Shown: positions 3,113 to 40,822 of the stretch, piece by piece | Position numbering within the stretch: the first letter of the stretch is position 1 | Layout: each line of letters begins with the position of its first letter | Assembly (NCBI GenBank): GCA_031835245.2 | Contig: JAVKOQ020000071.1 | Location: 124,001-188,000, forward strand | Origin: Balamuthia mandrillaris | Taxonomy: Eukaryota | DNA: 64,000 bases | Direction of reading: 5' to 3' | Translations under genes and position numbers: made by a program | The notes under the pieces: model-generated | The model's input: only the letters and a program-made list of their open reading frames with translations | What the model was told of the DNA's origin: nothing | The model's database searches: none

Positions 3113-4317
3113 TTATTCCGCCTTTTCTTCTTCCTTCTTCTCCTTTTCTTCCTTCTTCTCCTTTTCTTCCTTCTTCTCCTCATTCTCTTCCTTGTTCTCC
3201 TTCTTCTTCTCCTTCTTCTTCTTCTCCTTCTTCTCCCCCTTCTCCTCCTTCTCCTCGTCCTTCTCCTTGTCGTCCTTCTTTTCTCCCTGCTTTTTCTCCT
3301 CCTTCGTTTTGCCTTCCTTCTTTGTCTTCTCTTTCTTTGGCTTCTTCTCTTTCTTCGTCTTCTCCTCTCCTTTCTTTCCTTCCTCCTCTTCCGCATCGCT
3401 CGTCTCCTCCACAGTGTACTCTTCTGGAATTTTCTCTTCTGAAGCAGAAGACGAAGACACAGAGGCAGATGCAGAAGAAGCAATAGCACTGCGCATGCTC
3501 ACCATGAGATCTTTGCCCAATTGAACAGCATTCTTCAGCGCGGCAGTCCATTGATCCGCCTCTTCCTCTGAAGCGGCGCTCAGCAGGAGGTTCTGACGGC
3601 CTTCCAACTTGATGGTGAAGGGGCGCGACGCTTCTTTGTCCACCAAAGGACCCGTAGAGACTTCGAAGGAGTTCAGCTCGAAACCATCCTTCGGATCTTC
3701 CTGAAAACGCAAGCCAAGTTCAATTTTTTTTAAAAAAAAGACAACGGTTGAAAGGTAAAAGAGTATAGGGGACAAAGAGGAAGGAGAATGCATACGTTTT
3801 TAGCGTCCAACAAGAACAAAACGTTTTTGTGGATAATACAAAACTTTTTCTGCCATTTCTTGGGAGATATCGCTTTGCTCAGCCATCCCGATAACTGTTG
3901 TTGCCAAAATAACCAAGTCAGAAATAACCCGTCATAAAGGAGAACGAAGCTATAAAAGAAAAAGAAAAAAGGGGAGAAGAAAGAAACCTCTTCTGATCCT
4001 TCAAGGCTTGCAACCCATTGCTTTTCCTTGTCATCGCCCTCCTTTTCAGTCTTATCAGAGGACGCAGCAGCAACAGGACTAATGGCAGCACGAATGGCGC
4101 TCATCCAAACTTGCATCTCCTCCTCGTTGGCGGCCTGCAAGTAAAACACGCGAGCGCGCTTGGGGTGAGTGATGCTGAAACAGTGCTCACGATTGAGCTC
4201 GGTGGAAGGCTCCACGGAGCAGCCAACCAAAGCCACAAATCCTTTCTTCACAGCAATTTTCTAAAGAATAACAGAGAAATGTTAAAAGAGAAAAACAACG
4301 AAACGAGGCGAGGCGAG

Positions 4318-4370
<53 letters not shown>

Positions 4371-6070: not shown

Positions 6071-9000
6071 ATGAACCCATGGTGCCCCTTGGGCGAAGAG
6101 GCGACTTTTGTTCGCTTCCAAACTTTCTCTTTCCTCAGGCCTTTATATAGTAACCTCAAAAAAAAAAAAGAAGTGGTCCTGCGGTGCCGCTTGTGCAGCA
6201 GCTGGTACTGCCATGAAGGCACAAGCAGCAAGAGGTATGGTGGTGTTTCCATTGCCCAAGATGCGTTCTTCTGACTCTTATAGCACTCTAAAGGTGAGTT
6301 GGAAGAACGGCTTTCCACAGTGGTGAACAGACATGTATCGAGAAGCGTAAGGCTGGAGGTGCTTGGCGCCATAGCGAAACTTGTAAACTCTGAGAGCTTT
6401 CAGTTTCCTTCTGACCTCGCACAGTTTTTCCAAAGGTTCTCAGCATGATCCCTTTCTTGTTTGTATTTTCGTGTCTTACACTCTCCTTCAAACAGTCTGG
6501 GAGAGCTCCTGTTACATCCTTCTCAAACGCTTAGAGCTTGCACCCTGCGAGTAATTCGCTATTCTCTCAACAGACATCCCGATAAGACCGCCTTCCTGAC
6601 CCAACTCATCACCTCCAACGTTGGTTTCCTGATTGCGAGGTAGCGCTCTTCTTTTTTCTAACCCTTCTCTTTCTCCTGTCTCATTTCTGTTATTCGTCGC
6701 TTGAATGGACTTCGTTGAAACCAAAAAAGGTCGATGGAACGCGAGGAGGAACTTACTCAGGAAAGGGTGGAAGCTTTCAAGTTGGCGCGAGCATTCATAG
6801 GCTTGGACTGTTCCATCTTTCCTCGAAGCATCGTTGCCGCGGTCATCGCCATCGCCGAGACGCATCGTGATGCCTTTTGTAAAGCCTCTTTGGAGCTGCT
6901 CATTGAAATAGGTATCATCTGCATCCAGTCGGTTTCATCCTTTTTTCTTCTCACTTCAACAATAGCGATGACAAACCCCAAGTTGACCGCCTACTGTGGA
7001 GGGTTCGCAACGTTGGTGACGGCTAGTTTCGATCCGCACCACCAGTCCTACCAGCCTCACATACTGGCCGCCCTCCTCAACATCCTCAACGATGAGTCCA
7101 CCCGCGCCTTCCTCCGGACAGACTGTGAGTTGCAGGTATCTCCAGTTCCTCCACCGTTCTGTCGCTTCCTGTGGTCCCCTCCTACTCACAAAACATAACA
7201 AAACATACAGAGCATTGTATCGTTGCTGACAAACAATGATGCAGACGAACCACCAAACAGAGACCGTTGCGCAGCGGCCACTAGGGCCATCTTCAGCATG
7301 CTAAAAAGCTGGAGCGGGCTCATCTCCTTCGCCTCGGACGCCACCGCCTTGACCTCCATCGTGCAGTGCTTGCTCTCCTCCCACCTCCTCATCCAGGAGC
7401 TAGTCCTGGACTCCTTCTTCCAACTCCTCTTCGTTCCCAACTTTGAAACAACCAACAACACCAACGGCAACAGCAGCGGGAATGTCGATTCTTCCAATGC
7501 GGCTGCTGCCAACTCCGCAACCAAAGCAAGCAACACCAACCATCCAAACCCAAACAACAACAACAATAACAACAACATAAGCAACAACGCACCAACTACC
7601 CTTCGAAGACACATGGCTCCCTCCAAAGACGCTCGGGTGGCTGACTTTGGCATTGGAGGCGAGCTCTCCCTGCCGAGCAGGACCTACGGCGAGAGGTGGA
7701 ACCTCAAGGACAACTTTTTGGCCGCCCTCCTGAGCCTCTTCATCGCCAAGGGTTTGGTTGAGGCGTTGGTCTTCCTGGCCATGCGGGTGGAGAAGGATCA
7801 CCCTCAGCTGTCCCTGAAGGCCACCGTCCTGCTGGGTGAGATCTTGCATATGTCCAACCAGCTGTTGCCGCCCTCTCAGTGCGCCCGACTTCAGGTATAT
7901 CAGCTATACCTGTCTTTTGTTCCTCTCCCACGTTTCACTTTCTCGTTCCTTCCTCTGCTTTCTTCTCCTCTCTGTGTTGTTTAATTCCAACCACGTCATT
8001 GAGAAGTAATAATAACTAACACTTGCCGCAACACACACGACCCCAGACTCTCCCCAACTTGATATCATGCTCGGTGTCGAGGGCGGTTCATCCGAGCATG
8101 CGGTCCAATGCCAGCACCATGGTCAGCAACCTTCATCAGTTCTCCCACAACCGGGAGACCAGCAATCACTATGACTTTCACCTGAGCTTGATCGTTACCG
8201 GGGCCAACAAGTGGAGAAGGAGGAAAGGCATGGACAAGAACTTGGACCGCATCGATGACGTGAAGCGGAAGATCGACTGGAGCATGGATGAGAACCAACT
8301 CACGGCCAAGCTGAAGCAGACACAAGTACTTCTTTTTCTACTTCTATTGTTCTCTGCTGTTATGAGCTGCTCTCTTCTTTATTCGATCTCTGTTCTCTCT
8401 TTCTTCTCTCTCTCGCTCTCTCTCTTCTTCCCTTTAGTCTTTCTTCTCTGCTTATTGACATACAAAAAGGTGTTAACGACAAAGGACTATACGAGATGGG
8501 ACTGGGACGTCATAACAGAAGCCTTAGAAGGGCCGTTACGCAACCCTGCCCACCTCAACTACGCCCTCCACACCAAGTTCATCAAGCGCATCATCTCGTT
8601 CCTGCAACCCACTTCAAACAAGTTTGCCAGCATACCGTGCTCTCCGGTTTGTACTTTTCCATGTGAACAGCCTTCACTTCTTCTTCTTTTCTTACTTTCG
8701 GTCTCTCGTCCTCTTCCTTTTTGTTGATGCCCATAGGAGGCTATCAAGTATGTGAGGGCCGCTTGTCAGTTGATGGAACTATTGCTCTCTACCGAGGAAG
8801 GCACGACCTTCCTCTCCGAGAGTCGGTTGATATCTCACATTTCCGATCTTCTGAAGGCTGAAGTGGATGGAGTAAGCTTTCCTATGCTCTCCTTTTTTGT
8901 TTTCAGACATTCTGATAAGTTTTTCTCTTGTTGTTCGCAAAAGAATGGAGGAGCATCCACTCCATCCGCTTCTTCCGGTTTCTCTTCGTCTTCTTCTTTC

Positions 9001-12000
9001 TCTTCGTCCTCTTCCAAAAGGCAAATAGACATCAGGCCAGAGAATGTTCATAAGACTTTGGTGAGGGAGTACTTCACCCTGTTGGGAACGTTGAGCAGGT
9101 AAGTGAAATTTCGTTTTTCTGTTTTATTTCCCGAATTACAACACGACCCCTGTGGGTTCCTTCGGAGTTTTCACGGTCCGTGACACCAAATGCTTGGTTG
9201 TCGGGCACCAAGGTCTACATTCGTTCGGAGGCCTGGACCAGCAAGACTTGCACCTGGTGCCTCCATGTGACTCACGAACAGAAGCAACACAACCAGCGTG
9301 AGCGAATCTTCGAGTGCGGACGCAGGGACTGTGGGATACGACTGGATCGAGATATAAATGGAGCTCGCAACATACTCCTTAGGAGCCTCTGTTGCGGCGT
9401 TGCCCGATGGAGCCATATGGGGGCGTGCTGATGGGAAAGTGGATGGGCGCTTCTGTAGCCCTCTAGCCCACCCCATCACCGCGTCTTCGCAAGAACTTTC
9501 ATTTGTGAGTTTACTCACTTGTGTGATTTTTAATCCATCAGCTATCCCGCCGGCAATGACGTGCTGAAGAAGGCCAAAGTTTTTGCTCATCTGGGAGCCT
9601 TGTTGAGTCTTCAGGGTCGCGATGACCTTCCGTTCCTCATTCTTTCCTGTCTAGACTACAACCTGTACTTCCATCTTCTTGCTCCTTGCTCCATTTCATT
9701 CCTCTTATGTTAACTTCTTTCTGCACAGAGCGGGCTATTCCAGAGTGTTGTTGCAAAAGTCTCTTTCCTCGTCCTCCAAAGTGGTTCGATACATGGCCAC
9801 CAGGCATATGCGCGTCCTGTTGAGAGCCGGTGTTGCGAACTTCTCTGCGTGGGGCATAGAGTTCCTTGTCACTCAAGTTATATTTATTCATTCTTCATTC
9901 TGTCCTCCTTTTTCTCCTTGGCTCTCTTCTTGTTCCCGCTTCTCTTTCATCATCCGCATTCTTTTGAGACAAACGAACCAACCTTCTATTCTTTTATCTT
10001 TCTTTGTTGCTATAGCTGGCCGACAGCAACAAGCGAGTCAAGGAGCTGGCGTTAAGCATCCTGGATGAAGCCTGCGACGAGGACGAATGTCTCGAGTCCC
10101 TCATTTCCAAGAAGCCCCGTTCCCTGCTGGATATGGGGGCAGAGGGCAAGTCCCTCGTCCTTCGCTTTCTCTCCAGAGAGCAGGGCCTGCAGGTAAGTGA
10201 AATTTCGTTTTTCTGTTTTATTTCCCGAATTACAACACGACCCCTGTGGGTTCCTTCGGAGTTTTCACGGTCCGTGACACCAAATGCTTGGTTGTCGGGG
10301 CCGTGTGGAAACTATTTAAGCAACCGCTCCGTTCTTTCCAGTCGTATCCCACAGTCCCTACATGTCACAAACCACCACCATTGACGCTACCACTACCATT
10401 ACCCCACGACTCAGAGAACCCACCGAAGATCTGCACTACATCACCCCCACGAAGCTGATCAAACGCTATGGCGTCTCCCTCAGCGGGCTGGCCAAGTGGC
10501 ACACGGAGGGCAAGGTGGCGGCCCTCCGCACCCCAAGCGGGCACCGCCGCTACGCGGCAGAGCACGTTAGAGAGCTTCTTGGCCTCCCCGCCGCGGTCCC
10601 AGAACCCGAGGCCACCGAAAAGATCAAGGCCATCTACTGTCGAGTCTCCAGTCACAGACAACGAGAGCACCTCAAGCATCAAGTTGAGCGTATGCGAGAA
10701 GCCTACCCGAGGCACAAGGTCTACAGCGACATCAGCTCGGGCATCAACTGGAAGCGCAAGGACTTTGTCGCCCTTCTGGAGCGAGTCCTTGCTGGACATG
10801 TCGAGGAGGTTGTGGTTGCCCACCGAGACCGCCTCTGTCGGATCGCCTACAAGCTCATCGAGCACATCTTCCGTAGGTGCGGAACCCGTCTCCTGGTGCA
10901 CCGTCCGGACGACGAGGACGACGATGAGGCTGAACCAAGCAACGTCCTCGCCGAGGACCTCCTCTCCCTCGTTACCGTCTTTGTCTGTAGACACCACGGT
11001 CAAAGATGATATACAGCTGGCCAAGGAGGCAGCTCGAGCACGTCAAAGAGGCCAAGGCAAACCAAAAAGGGCGACAGAGGAGGATCCAAACGACGACGAA
11101 GAGGAGGAGGAAGATCCGACGCTGTTCAAGACGAGAAAGATACGTCTGAGGCCCACCAAGGAACAAGCCCGGATCCTCAACCACTGGTTCGGAGGGGCGA
11201 GGAAAGTCTGGAACACCACTCTTCGAGACTGCAAGACAACGGAGAAAGAAGAAGAGGAGGAAAAGAAGAGGAGTAGAGTGGCGTGGAAGCTGAGTCGGAT
11301 GCAGGGCGTCTGCGTGGTTAAACCTAGAATCATATTCGATTACTTGGAAGACGTCCCCTACTCCATCAAGCACGAGGCGGTAAAGCAGCTCCACGGCAAT
11401 TACCTCACCTGCTGGACGCTCAAGAAGCAGGGTCATATCCGACGCTTCTCCATCAAGTACAAGCGCAAAAAGGACCACCGCACCGAGTCCATCAAGATCC
11501 TTGGACATTACGTCCACTGGTGGAAGGGCTTCATCTACCCCAACGAGCTCCACGTGAACGAGCGTTGGAAAGAAGCCAATGAAACCCGCAAGAGGACACC
11601 CAGACGACGGCGGTTGCCGAATCCCCACGTTAAGCACATAGACCCCATGTTCGACCCTGTAGCGTATGCTTTAGAAGGCCTGGAGTTGGACGACAAGGGC
11701 CGACTGAGACGAACCTGCACACTGCACAAGGACAAGCGTCAACATTTTTGGCTCTGCGTGCCGATCCCGATCCAACATCATGAACGGGCTCCTGATAACC
11801 AAGGGAGCATCGTGGCCTTGGATCCAGGGGTTCGCACCTTTCTGTGTGGATATAGTCCTACCGAGAGAACGGTGAGGGAGTTTGGACGCAACGACTTTGG
11901 TCGCATCTGGCGCCTCGGAAAGCATGCCGACGCCCTGCAGTCCAAAATCGACCGCTCCCCACCGAGCCGCCGCAAGAGAAAACTTCGCGCTCTGCTCAAA

Positions 12001-13813
12001 CTGAGAAAGAGGGTCACCAACCTGGTCGATGACTTTCACCGCAAGACGGCCCTCTTCCTGTGCCGCCGCTACGACCACATCATCATCCCTCCCTTTGGTG
12101 TGAAGGGCATTACGGCCACCCGAGGGAGGCGACGGAGGAAGATCGGCAAAAAGACCGCCAGGATGCTCTATTCCTGGGGACATTACCGATTCCGCCAGTG
12201 GTTGCTGCACAAGGCGAGGGAATGGGGCACCAAGGTCTACATTCGTTCGGAGGCCTGGACCAGCAAGACTTGCACCTGGTGCCTCCATGTGACTCACGAA
12301 CAGAAGCAACACAACCGGCGTGAGCGAATCTTCGAGTGCGGACGCAGGGACTGTGGGATACGACTGGATCGAGATATAAATGGAGCTCGCAACATACTCC
12401 TTAGGAGCCTCTGTTGCGGCGTTGCCCGATGGAGCCATATGGGGGCGTGCTGATGGGAAAGTGGATGGGCGCTTCTGTAGCCCTCTAGCCCACCCCATCA
12501 CCGCGTCTTCGCAAGAACTTTCATTTGTGAGTTTACTCACTTGTGTGATTTTTAATCCATCAGTACCTCCAAGAAACAGGCTTCGTCGACTCGGAGCTGG
12601 AGCTGTGGAGACAAACGGAGAGCCAGAACTATGTCATGGACATCGAGAAAGCCTTGGACCATACCTTTTCGGATGCCAAGCGAGTGGTCTCGCAGGGCCA
12701 GAAGAAAGGAGTGGTGAACCCTCCTCCCCATTTCTATGGAGAACTGGCCAGAACGGAGCCCGGCTGCTCCGTCTTGAGGGAATCCGGTCACATTCCCTCC
12801 ATGGTGCGGCGCCTGCAGAGCGGACAGGGCTCCTCCCTTTCTTCTCGCGCCATTCTTTGGGCATTGGTACTTGTCTTTCTTGCTATGTTGTCGTTTCTTT
12901 CTTACATTCTCATCTTCTTTGTCTGCTCGCATGAACACAAGGGACACATCGGCTCCTCAAAGACAGGGTTGAAGTTGTTGGAGGAGGAAAAGGCGGTAAA
13001 CTTGATGGTGAACCTTGCCGAAACGAGTCCTTGCCTTTCCATTCGTGGGTACGTCATTCACTTTCTACGAAAGCACTCGTTCAGGTTCTTGTGTGTTGTT
13101 AACACTATTGTTTTATTTTTTTAAAAAAACCAGCACGTGTTTCAATATAATGGGCCTTTTGACGAGAACGGAGGAAGGACGAGGCTTGTTGGCCGCTTTG
13201 GGGTGGGAGAGTCCCGCTTCCCTAAAGCCCAACGTTTGTGTGCCTCGCGACCCGCAAGCTAGCGGGTTCTTCAAGGTTTCTTCTCTTCTTCTTCTTCTTG
13301 TTCTTCTTGTTCTTCTTCTTCTTCTTCTACTTCTTCTTTCTTCCCTCTCCTCTGACAACACAACCACAAAAGCTTCAACAGTGCCAGTACCAAGGCTCAT
13401 GGCCACAAACAAACCCCAAAGTCCCTTCTCTCCTTCTCACTTCCAGCCCCCACAAGAGCAAGAACAAAGGACAAGAAGAAGAAGAAGGCGCAACCACCGA
13501 ACGAAGCAACGAGATCCAGGTGGCGGTGGCCAACCTCGTCAACTACATCACCTGCGACAAGGCTCTGGCAAGCTTGGAGCGCATCAAGGCCAACGATACC
13601 GGCGTTCTGAAGGATCCTCGGACGCGCAGCTTCATGCTGAACATGTTGGAGAGCTACAAGTATCGCTTGAAGCTGCGGCGCTTCATCTACAGTTTGATGG
13701 AAGAGGTGGATGAGGAGGGCGGCGGCGGAGGAGGCAAGTGGGATGGCGCCTTTTGTAAGGATTTACCTCCGGCTCAACCGCGTAGATTCACTTGGCTCGC
13801 AGCTAGAAAGTAG
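6071..13813 (+). CDS. RICTOR: Rictor / Pianissimo (TORC2 subunit), multi-exon, carrying two transposon-introns; start codon uncertain
   Basis: Rictor-type motifs: EERVEAFKLARAFI, KATVLLGEILHMSNQLLP, VLTTKDYTRWDWDVI, EYFTLLGTLS, RDDL...LDY, VRYMATRHMRVLLR, LVLRFLS...GLQYL, PPHFYGELARTEPGC, LWAL(G)HIGSS...G, SPCLSIRGTCF. Stop TAG at 13811-13813. Confidence 0.9.
9099..9541 (+). mobile_element. Non-autonomous 443-bp internal-deletion derivative of the IS607/Fanzor element, forming a phase-2 GT-AG intron in Rictor
   Basis: First ~107 bp match 10193ff and last 336 bp match 12228-12563 with one SNP (A9295 vs G12317). Ends are GCAG|GTAAGT ... CCATCAG|. Removal gives LLGTLS-S-YPAGNDVLKKAKVF...RDDLPFLILSCLDY in frame. 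Confidence 0.95.
10337..10359. repeat. Left arm of a perfect 23-bp internal inverted repeat (right arm 12346-12368)
   Basis: TCCAGTCGTATCCCACAGTCCCT is the exact reverse complement of AGGGACTGTGGGATACGACTGGA in the 3' end of the Fanzor CDS. Confidence 0.95.
10362..11009 (+). CDS. tnpA: IS607-family serine recombinase/transposase TnpA
   Basis: N-terminal MerR-like winged HTH (YGVSLSGLAKWHTEGKVAALRTPSGHRRY) ahead of the catalytic domain: AIYCRVSS (catalytic Ser codon about 10647), DISSGINWKR, VVAHRDRLCR, EDLLSLVTVF. HTH-first order is characteristic of IS607. Intronless. Confidence 0.95.
   Translation: MSQTTTIDATTTITPRLREPTEDLHYITPTKLIKRYGVSLSGLAKWHTEGKVAALRTPSGHRRYAAEHVRELLGLPAAVPEPEATEKIKAIYCRVSSHRQREHLKHQVERMREAYPRHKVYSDISSGINWKRKDFVALLERVLAGHVEEVVVAHRDRLCRIAYKLIEHIFRRCGTRLLVHRPDDEDDDEAEPSNVLAEDLLSLVTVFVCRHHGQR
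10468..12453 (+). CDS. tnpB: Fanzor2 / TnpB-like RNA-guided endonuclease; start may be ATG 10468, 10798 or 10924
   Basis: KTRKIRLRPTKEQARILNHWFGGARKVWN (TnpB N-terminal HTH), RuvC-I IVALDPGVRTF, IIIPPF at the canonical RuvC-II position with the relocated Glu in SEAWTSKTC, zinc finger CTWC...CGRRDC, RuvC-III LDRDINGARNI. Uninterrupted ORF. Confidence 0.93.
   Translation: MASPSAGWPSGTRRARWRPSAPQAGTAATRQSTLESFLASPPRSQNPRPPKRSRPSTVESPVTDNESTSSIKLSVCEKPTRGTRSTATSARASTGSARTLSPFWSESLLDMSRRLWLPTETASVGSPTSSSSTSSVGAEPVSWCTVRTTRTTMRLNQATSSPRTSSPSLPSLSVDTTVKDDIQLAKEAARARQRGQGKPKRATEEDPNDDEEEEEDPTLFKTRKIRLRPTKEQARILNHWFGGARKVWNTTLRDCKTTEKEEEEEKKRSRVAWKLSRMQGVCVVKPRIIFDYLEDVPYSIKHEAVKQLHGNYLTCWTLKKQGHIRRFSIKYKRKKDHRTESIKILGHYVHWWKGFIYPNELHVNERWKEANETRKRTPRRRRLPNPHVKHIDPMFDPVAYALEGLELDDKGRLRRTCTLHKDKRQHFWLCVPIPIQHHERAPDNQGSIVALDPGVRTFLCGYSPTERTVREFGRNDFGRIWRLGKHADALQSKIDRSPPSRRKRKLRALLKLRKRVTNLVDDFHRKTALFLCRRYDHIIIPPFGVKGITATRGRRRRKIGKKTARMLYSWGHYRFRQWLLHKAREWGTKVYIRSEAWTSKTCTWCLHVTHEQKQHNRRERIFECGRRDCGIRLDRDINGARNILLRSLCCGVARWSHMGAC
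12400..12583 (+). ncRNA. Predicted omegaRNA: scaffold in the element right end, guide from the flanking Rictor exon (TACCTCCAAGAAACAGGCTT); 5' boundary unknown
   Basis: Position follows known TnpB/Fanzor biology. Visible pairings: TGATGGG 12451-57 with CCCATCA 12494-500; GAAAGT 12457-62 with ACTTTC 12517-22; TCTT-cgc-AAGA; GTGAG-ttta-CTCAC. No expression data. Confidence 0.55.
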
Positions 13814-13953: not shown

Positions 13954-15169
13954 CTACTGTTTGGTGAGGTATCGTTGAAGGCTGTTGGCAAGAACGGAGC
14001 TGCGGAAGGAAAGACCTTTGGTCTTCTCTATTACTTGTTGATGTCTTTTTGTGTGTTTGTTTTATTGTTATTGTTAAAAAAATGAGAAAAAGAAAGTACG
14101 AGATTAAAAAAAAAAAGAAAGGAGTAGGTACACGCTGGGGTATTGGGAGCCCATGACAATCTGGTTGGAGGCAGAGTCGATCTTGGCATCGAGGCGGGCA
14201 TTACGAATCATGTTAACGATCCAACGCTCGGCAGCTTCTTGGTCCATGTTCAATTTCTCAGCCAACATTCTGGATTATTTTTCCACAGAAAGTCAGTTTG
14301 TGTAAATAACAAAAAAAACTGAACACGGACAAAGAAAGGAAAGCAGAAGTCATACCCAAGGTCAATGCGTTGATGAATGCGACAATAGGTCTCAAAGATC
14401 AGGAGACGTGCATTCTCAATAAACTCCGCCCTGCAAGACACCAAGAAAAAGTCATTCAGGAGGACGTCCTCGCACTGACGCAACTTTTGCTGAGCACCAT
14501 CAAAGTCGAATTTCACATAGAGATCCTCCACAAACTCCGTGATGGGATCTTTGTAGGTGTAGCTCTCCTGTTGGATGACATCGACGAGCTCCTTTAACAC
14601 GCCGCGCTTCCTTCGGTTGGTGATAACGGCAGTGGTGAGGTAGCGCAGAACGTGGGGGCAAGTCATCTGGATGGTATTAAGATACTTCTCGTTGAAGAAG
14701 AGGTCGATGATGCCGGTTCGTCCATTAGCAGAGTTGAAGAAGACAAAGAGACTCCAGTGCAGCAGCCAAGTGCGTTGTTGCAATCGCATCAGTGGAGATT
14801 TGAAGGTCTAGTTTATTTTGGGAGATAAGAATTTGTCGTATCGCAAAAGAAGAAGATAAAGCAGAGATTTTAAGACTATACCTTTGTTTCAATAGCTTCC
14901 TTCAAAACTTTGAGGTCCTCGTTGGCCTCATTCCAGTTTTGTTTGAGGATCTCAGCAGCCAGCTTACCCCAAAGAGCGCTAAAGTTCTTCTCGGGATCGG
15001 AGCTGAGACTCCTGAAATGGGACAAGTAGAGTGCTGCTCCGGAGTAGTTACCGCACTCGTATTGGAACTTGGCGTGGTCGTAGAGAGCTTCCAAAGCATT
15101 CGCTTGTATCTGTTCGAAATAAGGGTAATTGATTTTTTAGCACTGGAGCGAACGGAGGAAAGAAGATAG

Positions 15170-15221
<52 letters not shown>

Positions 15222-20519: not shown

Positions 20520-21490
20520 TACTCGAATGTGAACGCTGACGAAATCTTCCTCTGGAGCAGAGCTGATAGTGAAAGGATGCCACTCGTGCGGTGCAATGTA
20601 TGGACAGTTGAGGAAGAGGTATTGGCCTGGCTTGTACCTGAACTTGGATTTCTTCATTTGGAGCTCTATTACTTTGGATGGATGTTGAATGGCCTGTTTA
20701 TCATAATATTAGATAACATTTTAGAGAGAAGAAGCCAGAAACCGCTAGGTACCATCAAAAGAACGGTAGATTGATGACCACGCAAGATCCGGACCATCCT
20801 TTCTACGAGATACGCAACAGCAGGACCAAGCACCCAAGCCCAAAAGGTGGGTGGCTCGAGGATCTCACCGGCGCCATGAGCGCACAACAAACCGTAGAAT
20901 ATGATGAACAGGTGGTGAGTGAACCAGAAGGCCTCAAAGTTCGGCCTTCTCACACTCTCCACCGCTGACGAGTACATCAAAATCATGCAAAAGACCACAA
21001 TATGTCCTGAAAAACAGAGAGGTAAGATGACAATGAGAGAGAGAGAGAGAGAGAGAGAACAGAACAAACCTGTAATGCCAGCAATGGTAGTCCAGGCAAA
21101 GTCCCAGGTGGTGGGCATTTCGCCATCAGGTTCGAGGTCGCTGTACCATGCCGTCAGGTCTCCGCGCGACTCGGGATCTTCGATATCCCAATGCTCCAAC
21201 GTGTTGAAGTTCATGTAATGCGATGTACTTGAGAAAGGCATTAGTACATCGAAGAAGAAGAAAGAAGAACGAAGATGGAGAAAGACAGAAGAAACGGAGA
21301 AGAGAGAAGCAATACATGTGGACTGCTGACAAAAAGGCGATGAACCAAGCTATGTTCTTGTGGAAGACGATAGCTTTGTCAACCGGAAGATACGTCCCAA
21401 TCCATGTACCCCTTATCCTGTTGTTTCGTTATTGTTATTTTTTTTATTTTAACAGAAAGCAAAGAGAGAGAGAAGAAGAAGAGAGGAGAG

Positions 21491-21570
<80 letters not shown>

Positions 21571-21620
21571 AGGGAGGAAGAGAGGAAGAGAGGAGAGAGA
21601 GACGAAGGGAGGAAGAGAAG

Positions 21621-21653
<33 letters not shown>

Positions 21654-22073
21654 CAAAGAAAGGATTGACAGAGAGGTTAGCAGAGAAGAGAATAGTTACC
21701 AAGACAAAAAGTTACGAAGAACAGGAATAAGAATGATGGCACAGTTGAGTTTTAGGGCAGCAGCGCTGCAACGAGCTCCGATAAGCCCCCAGCTCAACAC
21801 TTTAAATACTTCATCGTCCACCACATAATAATCTGTTTCGCGTGGTGGTGGTTATTATTTTCAGGAGTTACAAAGCCAAATTACCTCAGCAACACGAGTC
21901 AAGAAACAGAGCGTACGTATAAATCGTTCGAGAATAACTGCAATGTTGGCAAGCACGTAGAGAAGAATAAATATGGCTTTGGGTCCTTCGTTGATCCAGT
22001 AGGTCTGAACGTCTTTACATGTTAGGAACCGAACCTTTGGGATTGACTTTATACAATGGAGAACGTTTCCCAT
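19542..22073 (-). CDS. noxA: NADPH oxidase catalytic subunit (gp91phox/NoxA-like)
   Basis: [22 protein letters not shown] (haem His), [12 protein letters not shown]...[15 protein letters not shown] (FAD), [30 protein letters not shown], terminal YYHKENF. No N-terminal EF-hands seen. Confidence 0.93.
21463..21653. repeat. Long imperfect (AG)n microsatellite in a Nox intron
   Basis: Interrupted AG-dinucleotide runs, i.e. (CT)n on the coding strand. Confidence 0.9.
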
Positions 22074-22527: not shown

Positions 22528-23130
22528 CTAAGAGGAAAGCTCCGCCACTTTCTTCGCAAAGAGCTCAGCAGCTCTCTCCCAGACGGCTGCCATGGGGTCT
22601 TCCGCCTCTCGGCCCTTCTCCACCCAATGCGGCAGAGCCAACAGGCTGGACAGCAGATCATCCGAGAAGTTGATGCTGCTCTCCTTCGGCACCAGCGTAG
22701 GGAGGTGATCAATCGCCACAACGTCCAACAAAGGAGATGAGGAGGAGGAGGAAGAAGCGCCTTTGCTTGGCAGCACGCGAAGAATGGGTTCGACCAGAGT
22801 GGTCTGGTCGTTGTAGATGGGCAGCGGGTTGTTGGGATTGGTGTAGTCGCAGGAGACGTCCACCACCACCGAGAGCTGTCTCGTGCCCTTCTCCTCTTCT
22901 TGCTGAATGAGGTCCATGGTGAGGAAAGGAGGTATCTTGCCCATCAGGTAGATGCAGTTCACAAAGATGTCGCACTGGAGGATCTGTGGGAAGGGGCCAC
23001 CGGCGGCCGTCTCCTCCATGTCCCAGAGAACACGCTCTCCGATGTAGTTCTTCACCTGGTCCAAAAAGTAGATAGCTCCTCCTCCACATCTTCCTTTTTT
23101 TGTTTCTTTCATTAGGAACAAGAGAGAGGA

Positions 23131-23194
<64 letters not shown>

Positions 23195-24162
23195 AGAGAA
23201 AGAGAAAGAGAAAGAGAAAGAGAAAGAGAAAGAGAAAGAGAAAGAGAAAGAGAAAGAGAAAGAGAAAGAGAAAGAGAAAGAGAACAAAAGAAGGAAGAGA
23301 GAAGGAAGGGATAGAAACGAAAGAATAGGAATGAGGATAAAACCTTTGGCACCCATGATCATGACGCGCGGCCGCTTACCGGCAACCTTCTCAGCTGCTT
23401 GCAGGGCATTCCCAACTGTCTCAGCCAATGCCTCGATGCTGCTGGCCGGTTGCAAGGCTTTCATTGGCTCCTCTCCGTGCAACTGTTGGTGAGCCCATGC
23501 CAGCCTTTTTGACGCAGAAGAAGAAAGTGACAACGGAAGAAAGATTAGTAGAAGAACAACAAAGAAGCCTAGAGGGAGAGAGATAGAAACAGGAATGAAG
23601 AAAGAAACAGGAATGAGGCATGGAGAAAGAAGAAAGGATGAGAAGTGCAGAAGAAAGATATAAGAGTAGCAGAAGGAAAGAAGACAACAGAAAAAAGCAC
23701 AGAGAGAGAAGCGTACAAGCCAACAGCACAACCCGCCAAACCAGCAGCTCGTCCAAAGGCAGCCACGCGCCTGCCCTTGTCATCCACCAGGAACTCCAGG
23801 TCCAGCAGGAGACCCGAGCCCTTCACGAACCGGGCCAAGACGTCCCGCCAGCCCGTCTGGTTCTTGAAGCAGTGCGCAAAGTAAATGTGTCGGTGAGGGA
23901 GGGGGGAGTCGTCCCCTTCCGGCAATTCCTTTACGCCAAAGATGAGGCGGGAAAGGGGGGCCTCCCGCCAGCTGCCCGCCTCGACCAGGGTGCAGCCGGC
24001 CTCCTCGTAGTCTCCGTCGGGGAAGGCCCTGTCGGGGCTGCGCTCCACAAAGATGCGGAAGAGGCCGCTGTCGAGGAGCTTCTTGGCGTTGAGGGGGGTG
24101 AGCGGGGTTCTCCTCTCGTTGAGCTTGGTTTCGGCTCTTACGTGCAATTCTACCACTACCAT
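22528..24162 (-). CDS. LYS1: Saccharopine dehydrogenase [NAD+, L-lysine-forming]
   Basis: LHVRAETKLNERRTPLTP; IFGVKELP; HIYFAHCFKNQTGW; LLDLEFLVDDKGRRVAAFG; MGAKGRCG.GA; WDMEETAAGGPF; DIFVNCIYL; VVDVSCD; AIDHLPTLVPKESS..FS. Two introns. Confidence 0.93.
23135..23283. repeat. Compound microsatellite: (AG)n followed by (AGAAAG)n, in a LYS1 intron
   Basis: Read directly from the sequence. Confidence 0.95.
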
Positions 24163-30117: not shown

Positions 30118-31858
30118 TTCTCCTCTTATTGAATTGTTGGACAATAGTCATTGGATAGAAAAGCATGAGTATGGTATGTTCGCTCTTCCTTTCTGTTATT
30201 TCTCCCTCCTCCAAAAATAGGAAGTTATTCTTAAGTTAGATGGAAAAACCTTATATCTGGATAAACAAAATAGACTTTGAGAATAAAGTTCTTCGAAAGA
30301 GGTTCCTGTGGTTCGCCCAAAACGTTGTAGAGCAGGAAAAGATGAGAGACATGCTTGCCAAAGCATTTGACAAAGCCATCCAAAAACTGAACAGAACCTA
30401 CGACAAATTACAGCTCATTGACGAACTCAACTACATCAAACGACGTCAAGAAACGATTGTTGAGGTATGGTTTATGTTCTTATTATTTTCATTTGTTGGT
30501 TTGTTCCAGAAACAAACAGAAAACTATTGCAGAAACTTAAAACATTCGAAGAAGAGCCACTGTCGAACCCTCGTGAAACCAACGCCCCCAGGCCCATGCT
30601 ACCCAAGAACTTCCAAGCGAGAGAAAGGTTTTTGTTGGACTGGCACCCCACGGAGATTGCTAGGCAGATCACCCTCATCGAATTGTACATTCTTTGTTAT
30701 CTTCTTCATTGCTTCGACTTTCTTTACTCATTCTTTTCTTACGTGGTAAATCAACAACAGTGATTTGTTTCAGCGGATACAACCGAAAGAATTCTTGAAT
30801 CAAAGTTGGAACAAGCAAGGCAGAGAAGACAAGGCGCCTGGTATATGTGCCCTGATAGATAGGTTTAACGAGGTACCCACTCCACTACCTCCACTCATCG
30901 TCATCGTATTGAACTAAAAAGCTCCTTATTTTTGTTGCAGATGAGCATGCTGATGGCAACTTCCATTCTGTTGTTAGAAGATTTGGACGACAGACGAGCA
31001 ATGCTCAAGAAATGGATACTAGTTGCTGAGGTTCATTCTCCCTTTTCTCGAACGAACTTTTCTCGTTTTCAACTGGACTCAACTTTTAATCACAGGAATG
31101 TTTTACTATGAATAACTTTAATGCATTGATGGAAGTCGTGTCGGGGCTGAACGCTCCTTCATTGACAAGGCTGTCTCGAACGTGGGATGCGCTATCCTCA
31201 AAAACTAAAGATAAGTTTCGCGAGCTGACGTTGGTTACCGCCACTGAGAAAAACTTCAAAACCTTGCGAGAGCGTGTGGCTAGCGCTCCTCCTCCAAAGC
31301 TGCCTTATATTGGCACCGCTTTAGCTGACCTCACCTTCATTGAAGAAGGTGCCCTCCTCTTCTTCCTTTCTCACTAGCAACTTTATTGTTAAATATTCAC
31401 ATGCGTGAACAGGCAACCCAGACTACACAGAAGAGGGGCTCATCAACTTTGCAAAGCGGCAGGTAAGTGAAATTTCGTTTTTCTGTTTTATTTCCCGAAT
31501 TACAACACGACCCCTGTGGGTTCCTTCGGAGTTTTCACGGTCCGTGACACCAAATGCTTGGTTGTCGGGGCTGTGTGGAAACTTTCATTTGTGAGTTTAC
31601 TCACTTGTGTGATTTTTAATCCATCAGCTGCTGACAACTGTGATAGTGCACATGCAAACCTACCAACAACAGCGATACAACTACATGGCTGTACCGCCAC
31701 TCAAAACCTACTTGTTGACGCATCCACTGCTGCCAGCCGAAGAATGTTATGAGCGCTCGTTGCGGTTGGAGCCCAGAAGAGTCACTGTACGAGCCAGTGA
31801 AGGCAGAAAATCCAGCGTCAATCGCAAGGGCTCAGTTCAGAATGTTCTTTCCTCGTAA
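28696..31858 (+). CDS. Ras guanine-nucleotide exchange factor (REM + CDC25 domains), carrying a mini transposon-intron
   Basis: AASLTKLVE; FFITCRSFTTP; WHPTEIARQITLIE; IQPKEFLNQSW; MNNFNALMEVVSGL; PYIGTALADLTFIEEGNPD...LINFAKRQ|LL; YERSLRLEPR. Confidence 0.9.
31463..31627 (+). mobile_element. 165-bp miniature non-coding derivative of the IS607/Fanzor element, forming a phase-0 GT-AG intron in RasGEF
   Basis: 121 bp of left end (one SNP vs 10193-10313) joined at AACT microhomology to 44 bp of right end (12520-12563). Ends are GCAG|GTAAGT...CCATCAG|. Removal gives GLINFAKRQ|LLTTVIVHMQTYQQQRY. Confidence 0.95.
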
Positions 31859-40334: not shown

Positions 40335-40347
40335 TGTTCGTTTTGTC

Positions 40348-40422
<75 letters not shown>

Positions 40423-40822
40423 CCTCCCCTTTTGCTTTCTCGGCTCTTTTTCCTTTGTTGAATTCCTGAAATACCATTCATACTTTCCGCGCTTCGCGTT
40501 CCTATGATTTTTTGCATGGTTGGCATTCCGAGATCCAAAAAGCCCCAAAAATAAGCAATTATCGCTGCTGCTGCGCCGAAGAAGGAAGAGAGCGACACAA
40601 GCGGCCGTGTGCCCCAAAGCCCTGCGCTACGAGGAGGTTCAGCGGGGCCGTTGTTCCTCCTCCTCCTCGTCTTTGTTCGCGTTTTTTCATTCCTCGTGAC
40701 GCTGCGACGCATTGTCCAGGTTTGAAAGTCACCACAGCAGCAACATAGGCCTTTTTTTTTTGTAAAAACCGCACGGCTATTTGTGGTGTGCTTCGTTCTG
40801 CTGGCTCTACCTCTTCTTTGGG

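Follow-up and report, generated by a model that had tools for sequence, protein, structure and literature searches.

A 64,000-nucleotide (nt) stretch of the Balamuthia mandrillaris genome (assembly GCA_031835245.2, contig JAVKOQ020000071.1, positions 124,001 to 188,000 of the forward strand; hereafter the window, in whose coordinates all positions are given) contains a transposon of the IS607 type inside the gene for Rictor. The transposon is 2,371 nt long and makes up the whole of a phase-0 Rictor intron (10193..12563, + strand). It encodes an IS607-type recombinase, TnpA, and an RNA-guided nuclease of the Fanzor2 kind, and the spliceosome most likely treats it as an ordinary intron and takes it out of the Rictor pre-mRNA. 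The evidence laid out below supports an element of the IS607/Fanzor2 kind that behaves as an introner; for splicing of the full-length copy, that evidence is one RNA-derived contig together with the anatomy of three copies.

Ends, copies and removal of the element

The element opens with GTAAGT, the first G of which is position 10193 (10193-10198), and closes with TACTCAC (12534-12540), a 16-nt spacer and CCATCAG (12557-12563). On re-reading of the sequence, these ends lie exactly where the initial annotation had placed them. The upstream exon terminates in ...CTGCAG (GGCCTGCAG) at 10192 and the downstream exon begins with TACCTCC at 12564, and the Rictor exon-exon junction without the element reads GGCCTGCAG|TACCTCCAAG. 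Removal of the element in silico yields ...LRFLSREQGLQ|YLQETGFVDSELELW, with a frame that runs continuously across SREQGLQ|YLQETGF. The Pfam profile RasGEF_N_2 (Rictor) is split by the element at 71|72: the upstream exon matches its positions 14-71 and the downstream exon its positions 72-107; since the profile is contiguous across this point, the interruption costs no residue. The in-silico removal and the profile split bear out the earlier claim that excision of 10193-12563 rejoins the Rictor frame with no residue gained or lost. The features of the locus are the following.

10016..10192, + strand: Rictor exon 5′ of the element
10190..10192, + strand: exon-side CAG; its AG is the predicted crossover and target dinucleotide (2 base pairs, bp), and GCAG is the predicted Fanzor2 transposon-adjacent motif (putative roles)
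10193..12563, + strand: full-length element, forming the entire intron (from the sequence, and from the joint 10189 to 12561 in a contig of run X11, cut +3, GT..AG)
10193..10361, + strand: left end, non-coding, holding the GTAAGT donor, GTGAAATTT, TATTTAA and the left arm of an inverted repeat
10197-10205, + strand: motif GTGAAATTT in the left end
10313-10319, + strand: TATA-like TATTTAA, 43 nt 5′ of the tnpA ATG
10362..11009, + strand: tnpA, IS607-type serine recombinase, 215 amino acids (aa), with an N-terminal helix-turn-helix and a C-terminal catalytic domain
10924..12453, + strand: open reading frame (ORF) of Fanzor2, a TnpB-like RNA-guided nuclease of 509 aa, overlapping the end of tnpA by 86 nt in another frame
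12346..12368, + strand: right arm of the inverted repeat, inside the Fanzor coding sequence and complementary to 10337-10359
12454..12563, + strand: right end, non-coding, with a predicted hairpin-rich guide-RNA scaffold, the branch-like motif and the acceptor
12527 and 12545, + strand: right-end motifs GTGAGTTT and GTGATTTTT, respectively
12564..12865, + strand: Rictor exon 3′ of the element
12564..12579, + strand: start of this second exon, the predicted guide-matching flank for a Fanzor2 guide RNA, by analogy with the TnpB/Fanzor architecture described in the available part of PMC13565253

A BLASTN comparison of the element with the window returned three copies on the + strand and none on the - strand.

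9099..9541, + strand: copy 1, 443 nt; element positions 1-107 and 2033-2371, with 3 nt of microhomology at the junction; 99.7-100% identity to the full copy
10193..12563, + strand: copy 2, 2,371 nt; full length, used as the reference
31463..31627, + strand: copy 3, 165 nt; element positions 1-121 and 2324-2371, with 4 nt of microhomology at the junction; 99.2-100% identity to the full copy

Copy 1 is a phase-2 intron, also in Rictor, with positions 10-31 of the RICTOR_M profile before it and positions 35-72 starting from the third residue after it. Copy 3 is a phase-0 intron in a gene with a RasGEF domain: its removal opens the frame ...INFAKRQ|LLTTVIV..., and positions 82-164 of the RasGEF profile sit in the exon upstream of it. 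All three copies (phases 2, 0 and 0) lie in sense orientation inside + strand coding exons, in the context GCAG|GTAAGT...CATCAG|, and in each the limits of the repeat are the G of GT and the G of AG. The right end is kept to its last base in every window copy. With identical ends on the two further window copies, the splice-like character of these ends is beyond chance. Judged by sequence, the two derivatives that retain little besides the ends and stand as whole introns would be the hallmark of an introner family.

Further forms of the element were seen in RNA-type data. A contig of run X11 contains a micro-copy of ~79 nt, composed of 34 nt of the left end, 22 unrelated letters and 23 nt of the right end (window 10193-10226 and 12541-12563), and another form in the same run, at high depth, lacks 159 nt inside the nuclease gene (11553-11713). 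Loose contig ends in RNA-type runs reveal the right end next to at least four other flanks.

The native introns of Rictor provide a scale for these signals. Aligned to the window, the public Rictor protein model P0122 defines eight ordinary introns of 54-144 nt, and its colinearity with the window requires that both 9099-9541 and 10193-12563 be treated as introns. When donors are scored against CAG|GTAAGT, the element with its flank matches at 9/9 positions and the eight native Rictor introns at 4-7 of 9; the scoring covers these eight, with two further introns supported by RNA contigs left out. The native intron 7136-7210 likewise carries TACTCAC, 22 nt before its AG. In base composition, the native introns have a G+C content of 39%, and the element, at 56%, resembles exons.

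The proposed check of the Rictor junction in RNA gave a positive answer, as one X11 contig joins the two exons exactly and skips 2,371 nt. This contig (record 1, 401 nt, depth 20.9) consists of 9680-9876, 10016-10189 and then 30 nt from 12561. It omits both a native intron of 139 nt (GT..AG) and, again between GT..AG borders, a segment of exactly 2,371 nt; the larger skip is reported with its cut moved by 3 nt, CAG being present on both sides. Further X11 contigs skip downstream native introns of 75 and 85 nt, and X11 is therefore taken to be RNA-derived. The junction contig begins at 9680, inside a 64-nt intron (9665-9728) predicted from P0122, which is either retained there or not always removed.

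Genes of the element and a possible mechanism

The tnpA product matches the Pfam Resolvase profile over residues 90-214 (E 1.8e-15) and, weakly, a MerR-type helix-turn-helix over residues 30-64. Its top matches in the PDB are catalytic domains from TnpA proteins of the IS607 family (3lhf, 3ilx, 6dgc and 6dgb), with the RVSS motif aligned. The nuclease frame matches HTH_OrfB_IS605 (7e-12), Cas12f1-like_TNB (2.9e-16) and OrfB_IS605 (1.6e-6, under the curated cut-off). Among solved structures, its best match is the mimivirus L79 Fanzor2 (9b0l_P, E 2.6e-26), the other 11 chains scoring 1e-8 or weaker. The nuclease segments ALDPG, SEAWTSKTC-x2-C and DRD align with the DPG, E-x6-C and RD motifs of 9b0l_P, and the catalytic D, E and D are matched. 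As given in the available part of PMC13565253, the glutamate of the RuvC D-E-D triad has moved in Fanzor2 proteins and precedes the zinc finger by six residues. By its sequence, the Balamuthia nuclease belongs to this class, as it has the relocated glutamate, is closest to L79 among the solved structures and adjoins a serine-recombinase tnpA. The Pfam domains and PDB relatives of both proteins confirm the earlier identification of an IS607 serine recombinase and an intact Fanzor2 within the element.

In the Fanzor frame, no ATG directly follows the tnpA stop; the sole upstream in-frame ATG is at 10924, and the frame from there is free of stops. This ATG is the preferred predicted start. A fusion of TnpA to Fanzor through an internal intron, as drawn in the NCBI models P0001, P0123 and P0125, was treated as a prediction, and no such joint was found in four runs. 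For the P0125 type, removal of the 118-nt candidate intron 10873-10990 (GTAGGT..TGTAG) would place TnpA residues 1-170 in one frame with Fanzor.

NCBI proteins titled "Transposase [Balamuthia mandrillaris]" share 99% identity with the nuclease. This cluster has four members under five accessions, and the TnpA and nuclease parts are intact in all of them. Beyond this cluster, identity falls to 74% within the species, to 57% for a relative on an environmental contig and to ~35% after that (596 proteins at E<=1e-3, from 8,000 candidates scored). Intact, near-identical TnpA-Fanzor proteins come from at least five loci, a point in favour of activity, and the nuclease of a third subfamily, 63% identical, is fused in another gene model to an unrelated host ORF. 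P0125 and P0126 represent two element subfamilies (99% and 63% nucleases) with consecutive accessions on a single 16,590-nt contig elsewhere in the species; in the P0126 model, the nuclease of the 63% subfamily is fused to an unrelated host ORF of 800 aa. No close relative of the Fanzor protein was confirmed among metagenome contigs or among viral contigs, and the exact 33-nt left-end pattern had no match in metagenome contigs.

According to the available part of PMC6188088, IS607 inserts at GG, ends in GG, leaves the target unduplicated and lacks terminal inverted repeats (TIRs), which fits an exchange across an identical 2-bp sequence. In the Balamuthia element, the dinucleotide at the target and at the right end is AG, not GG, in all three window copies, and there is no target-site duplication. 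No inverted word of 7 nt or longer is common to the first 170 and last 130 nt, so that TIRs are absent, and the left and right ends have no common word of at least 7 nt. The tnpB-family gene lies 3′ of tnpA on the same strand, with an overlap of 86 nt, and thereby follows the IS607 gene order. The pattern GTGAN{1,2}TTT, a candidate for the short direct repeats that serve as TnpA binding sites in both ends of IS607 elements and one defined after viewing the ends, occurs in the element only at 10197, 12527 and 12545, each time in direct orientation; across the window it is not enriched (20 found versus 24.9 expected).

The only long inverted repeat in the element, perfect over 23 nt, lies inward of the termini, at a distance of 145 nt on the left and 196 nt on the right. 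Its left arm (10337-10359) lies just 5′ of the tnpA ATG and its right arm (12346-12368) in the coding region for the Fanzor zinc finger and RuvC-III. The two arms pair in the minimum-energy fold of the whole intron, in which the left 170 nt are largely paired with element positions 2152-2334. Copies 1 and 3 are without one or both arms. Such a repeat might draw the two splice sites towards each other across 2.4 kb in a genome whose introns are short; control of tnpA is another possible role. At the right end, the branch-like TACTCAC forms one arm of a hairpin, GTGAG-TTTA-CTCAC, and the region folds moderately better than shuffled sequences (z -2.15). An RNA contig in which the right end is joined to exon 2 is present in run X13.

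These properties can be arranged into a mechanism. Excision and insertion would be the work of TnpA, through a 2-bp crossover placed at AG where IS607 uses GG; no target-site duplication would arise, and the element would therefore land after (GC)AG and itself end in AG. The crossover AG would close the upstream exon and would also be the acceptor AG. Upon sense insertion into a transcribed exon, the flank and the left end would together read CAG|GTAAGT, and the right end would provide the branch site, a pyrimidine tract and the AG; because nothing is duplicated on insertion, splicing would restore the original message. Fanzor2 may cut element-free alleles and so favour copying of the element into them, with a guide RNA made from the right end by read-through into the downstream exon and with the (GC)AG flank serving as its motif. 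Homing is established for bacterial TnpB in the available part of PMC13565253, and we infer it for Fanzor2 from what the same part describes as established for TnpB and Fanzor. Incomplete copying during repair would yield internally deleted derivatives with microhomology at their junctions; keeping both ends, these would still be whole introns and could be mobilised in trans. Selection would remove antisense or unspliced insertions. Mobility, autonomy, mobilisation in trans, transposition chemistry, guide-RNA function and homing are all what we infer for this element.

Taken as a whole, the proposal is a eukaryotic counterpart of the bacterial IStrons. An autonomous IS607/Fanzor2 element would use its crossover AG and its termini as splice signals, create introns at AG in essential genes and decay from 2,371 to 443, 165 and ~79 nt into ordinary-looking short introns; exon-derived guides would drive it into intron-free alleles. 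Splicing, by which the guide would be lost, and guide maturation, which would need read-through and would hide the branch site in the GUGAG/CUCAC hairpin, would compete for the same RNA. The long-range 23-nt repeat would loop out the genes and so help the spliceosome to bridge 2.4 kb where introns otherwise measure 50-150 nt. We advance this complete picture tentatively. It is also conceivable, if rather unlikely, that the element is a spliced introner without Fanzor2 homing, in which TnpA alone moves the element, the nuclease is a passenger or has some other job, and the derivatives arise by replication slippage. Such an account would suit the lack of a detected guide RNA (no Rfam match, and a right-end z of only -2.15), and the second allele, if empty, stays unconverted. 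It sits poorly with a Fanzor ORF that is intact with its catalytic motifs here and 99% identical at other loci, with a right end that is kept to the last base in all copies and with the existence of RNAs that join the right end to the exon; homing by bacterial TnpB, moreover, is established (PMC13565253, available part).

Evidence against splicing and the public gene models

The public gene models at this locus reflect the presence of the element. P0124 (1,224 aa, window ~9350-13800) is a Rictor-TnpA-Fanzor-Rictor chimera: it starts in copy 1, continues through Rictor exons, the left end, TnpA and Fanzor, and then uses the right-end acceptor to return to Rictor. The element thus corrupts gene annotation. 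P0122 is a 99% identical Rictor protein from another contig, with an accession in the NCBI numbering range of P0124; it carries the name 'Peptidyl-prolyl cis-trans isomerase fkbp11'. In the P0122 model both element junctions are uninterrupted, yet the model reads through two short introns that are spliced in RNA contigs, and it was therefore probably predicted ab initio at a locus that lacks the elements. If that locus is indeed element-free, the insertions are polymorphic and precise.

Several observations weigh against removal of the element by splicing, or against the function proposed for its genes. The RNA status of X11 rests on its GT..AG joints and not on the run record. The element-free joint was seen in one contig of one run, with a downstream anchor of 30 nt. 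No joint for copy 1 is listed in X11, although the flanking exons have a depth of 8-12. In the raw RNA runs X17 (88 reads) and X18 (101 reads), there were no junction reads and no depth on exon 2; these reads lie nearly all on the element at 90-95% likeness and are uninformative for the junction. The X13 contig 12520-12865|12941-13047|13133-13200 keeps 44 nt of the right end in an RNA from which two downstream introns have been spliced, and either removal is incomplete or the element drives its own read-through RNA. P0122, in turn, may derive from an element-free allele, whose mRNA would be a possible source of the junction contig. Rfam gave no match at E<=1 over 10100-12700, group I models included. 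Finally, the Fanzor start is uncertain, as the NCBI models use differing predicted TnpA-Fanzor joins, none of which is matched by RNA joints. The initial annotation had held that the element can insert into essential genes silently. Exact removal is seen in the X11 contig and that part stands; with the last 44 nt retained in the X13 contig, "silently" is too strong.

The end of the junction contig bears on the question of which allele it came from. The sequence breaks off 30 nt (k-1) beyond the joint, and record 6, the contig that follows, begins at 12561 and is identical to the window. These ends fit a branch in a graph of 31-letter words in which a path from the element into exon 2 coexists with the spliced one. 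Read in this way, the contig ends would tie the joint to the base that the window allele has at 12589, where P0122 has Ala for Asp. This argues against the possibility that an ordinary disruptive insertion breaks this Rictor allele, that the joint contig comes from the mRNA of an element-free allele and that the splice-like ends are incidental. Such an explanation draws on P0122, a 99%-identical Rictor on another contig with uninterrupted junctions whose locus may lack the elements, and on there being one junction contig only. We consider it improbable, since only 30 nt separate the joint from the point where the contig rejoins the window-type path, whereas a P0122-type allele (Ala for Asp in the codon that contains 12589) should delay that merge. 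All three copies, moreover, lie in sense in exons and have, exactly at the limits of the repeat, a donor context that matches at 9/9 positions, a branch-like motif and an AG, and two independent null-allele insertions in one gene are improbable. That the element instead entered pre-existing ordinary introns at all three positions and rides along with their splicing is very improbable, for although transposons within introns are common and the element prefers AG, which is found at intron ends, the repeat spans G of GT to G of AG in all three copies with zero extra intronic sequence, the 165-nt copy consists of element ends alone, and the flanks are coding with contiguous domain profiles. Removal of the whole element as a spliceosomal intron is accordingly the reading that we retain.

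Other properties of the X11 data concern transcription of the element. An abundant contig starts at 10352, downstream of TATTTAA. Depth rises from ~30 at the left end to >400 over the element genes, and from ~21 on exon 1 to 78-140 from exon 2 onward. The jump in depth and the start at 10352 hint at a promoter within the element from which transcription continues into the host gene; as evidence, the depths and ends of contigs are poor, and they are not relied on. Elsewhere in the window, the repeats are dominated by microsatellites, with many long (GA)n/(CT)n and GAAA-type tracts that are mostly intergenic or intronic (for example 4300-4370, 15160-15220, 21480-21660, 23110-23300 and 40340-40430).

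Relation to known mobile introns

Biologists have long asked how spliceosomal introns originate and propagate. If the reading given here is true, a bacterial-type serine-recombinase element joins the known sources of introners. The element would also offer a mechanistic reason for the identity of intron and transposon: nothing is duplicated at the target, and the 2-bp AG crossover doubles as the splice-site AG. The size series of the derivatives would trace a path from an autonomous transposon to an ordinary short intron. For Fanzor, the locus would be the first natural setting in which to test a role in a cellular eukaryote, namely intron homing with exon-derived guides.

Eukaryotic and giant-virus Fanzor2 elements of the IS607 type, such as that of mimivirus L79, have the same order of tnpA followed by Fanzor2 and a conserved 3′ non-coding end (PMC3627910 and the available part of PMC10530073). 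The introns that appear in the accessible portions of the Fanzor2 literature lie inside Fanzor genes, and the element itself is not the intron; in Balamuthia, the termini of the element are the splice signals and the copies sit in sense in host exons. Neither PMC10711439 nor PMC3627910 contains the strings "intron" or "splic", and PMC10432273 contains no "intron" and a single "splic", in its reference list. In the literature as far as it was accessible, no paper was found that links Fanzor with introners, and the papers examined among those that combine Fanzor, IS607 and introns treat introns in Fanzor genes or group I IStrons. Among the papers listed, none was found that joins introners to TnpB, IS607, a serine recombinase or OrfB, and none in the Fanzor-TnpB literature that describes a shintron or spliceosomal homing intron.

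Introners are likewise near-identical, multi-copy whole introns with autonomous and deleted copies, and their splice sites come from the element or from the target (available parts of PMC9860276 and PMC12130899). The published introner classes are TIR, long terminal repeat (LTR), non-LTR, Helitron and Crypton elements, and none of those in the available part of PMC12130899 has an IS607-type serine recombinase or an RNA-guided nuclease. In that part, Gozashti et al. 2025 report a majority of non-autonomous introners, autonomous copies in some families and ~72% without a classification. The main text of that paper, as available, does not mention Balamuthia, and 12 of its 14 supplement files contain no Balamuthia, IS607, Fanzor or TnpB; in the available part of Gozashti et al. 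2022 (PMC9860276), the sole mention of Balamuthia is among the genomes surveyed. The suggestion in the initial annotation that the combination is undescribed stands for the combination itself, though the general idea is not new. No IS607/Fanzor introner was found in the literature, but autonomous introners (PMC12130899, available part) and nuclease-encoding spliceosomal introns (PMC12768974) have already been published.

Among the latter are the shintrons of mirusviruses (Medvedeva et al. 2025, PMC12768974), which are also spliceosomal introns with canonical sites and which encode an endonuclease proposed to cut intron-free copies. Shintron nucleases are protein-guided (HNH, GIY-YIG, VSR-like and PD-(D/E)XK) and come without a transposase, whereas the Balamuthia nuclease would be RNA-guided and is accompanied by tnpA; homing by the latter is putative. 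Shintrons are also site-specific to viral morphogenesis genes in viral genomes, whereas the Balamuthia element resides in a cellular genome. The words "Fanzor", "TnpB", "transposase" and "recombinase" are absent from that paper.

A functional parallel exists with the bacterial IStrons, which likewise are transposons that encode TnpA together with an RNA-guided nuclease of the TnpB family; host RNA is freed of them, and their insertion into genes is therefore tolerated (PMC4227781, PMC10690162 and the available part of PMC13565253). As described in the available part of PMC13565253, IStrons of the IS607 type sit after GG and end in CGG, the same logic of matching flank and end that the Balamuthia element follows with AG. 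In IStrons the 3′ end of the intron overlaps the guide-RNA region, according to the same source, which predicts an equivalent conflict between splicing and guide production for the Balamuthia element. IStrons are removed by a group I ribozyme, whereas the Balamuthia element has no Rfam match, carries signals for the host spliceosome, lies in a eukaryotic nuclear genome and uses AG, not GG. It thus works like an IStron without being one, as the group I ribozyme that defines IStrons has no counterpart among its Rfam results. If the proposed reading is true, bacterial IStrons, viral shintrons and eukaryotic introners would be linked as one recurring strategy.

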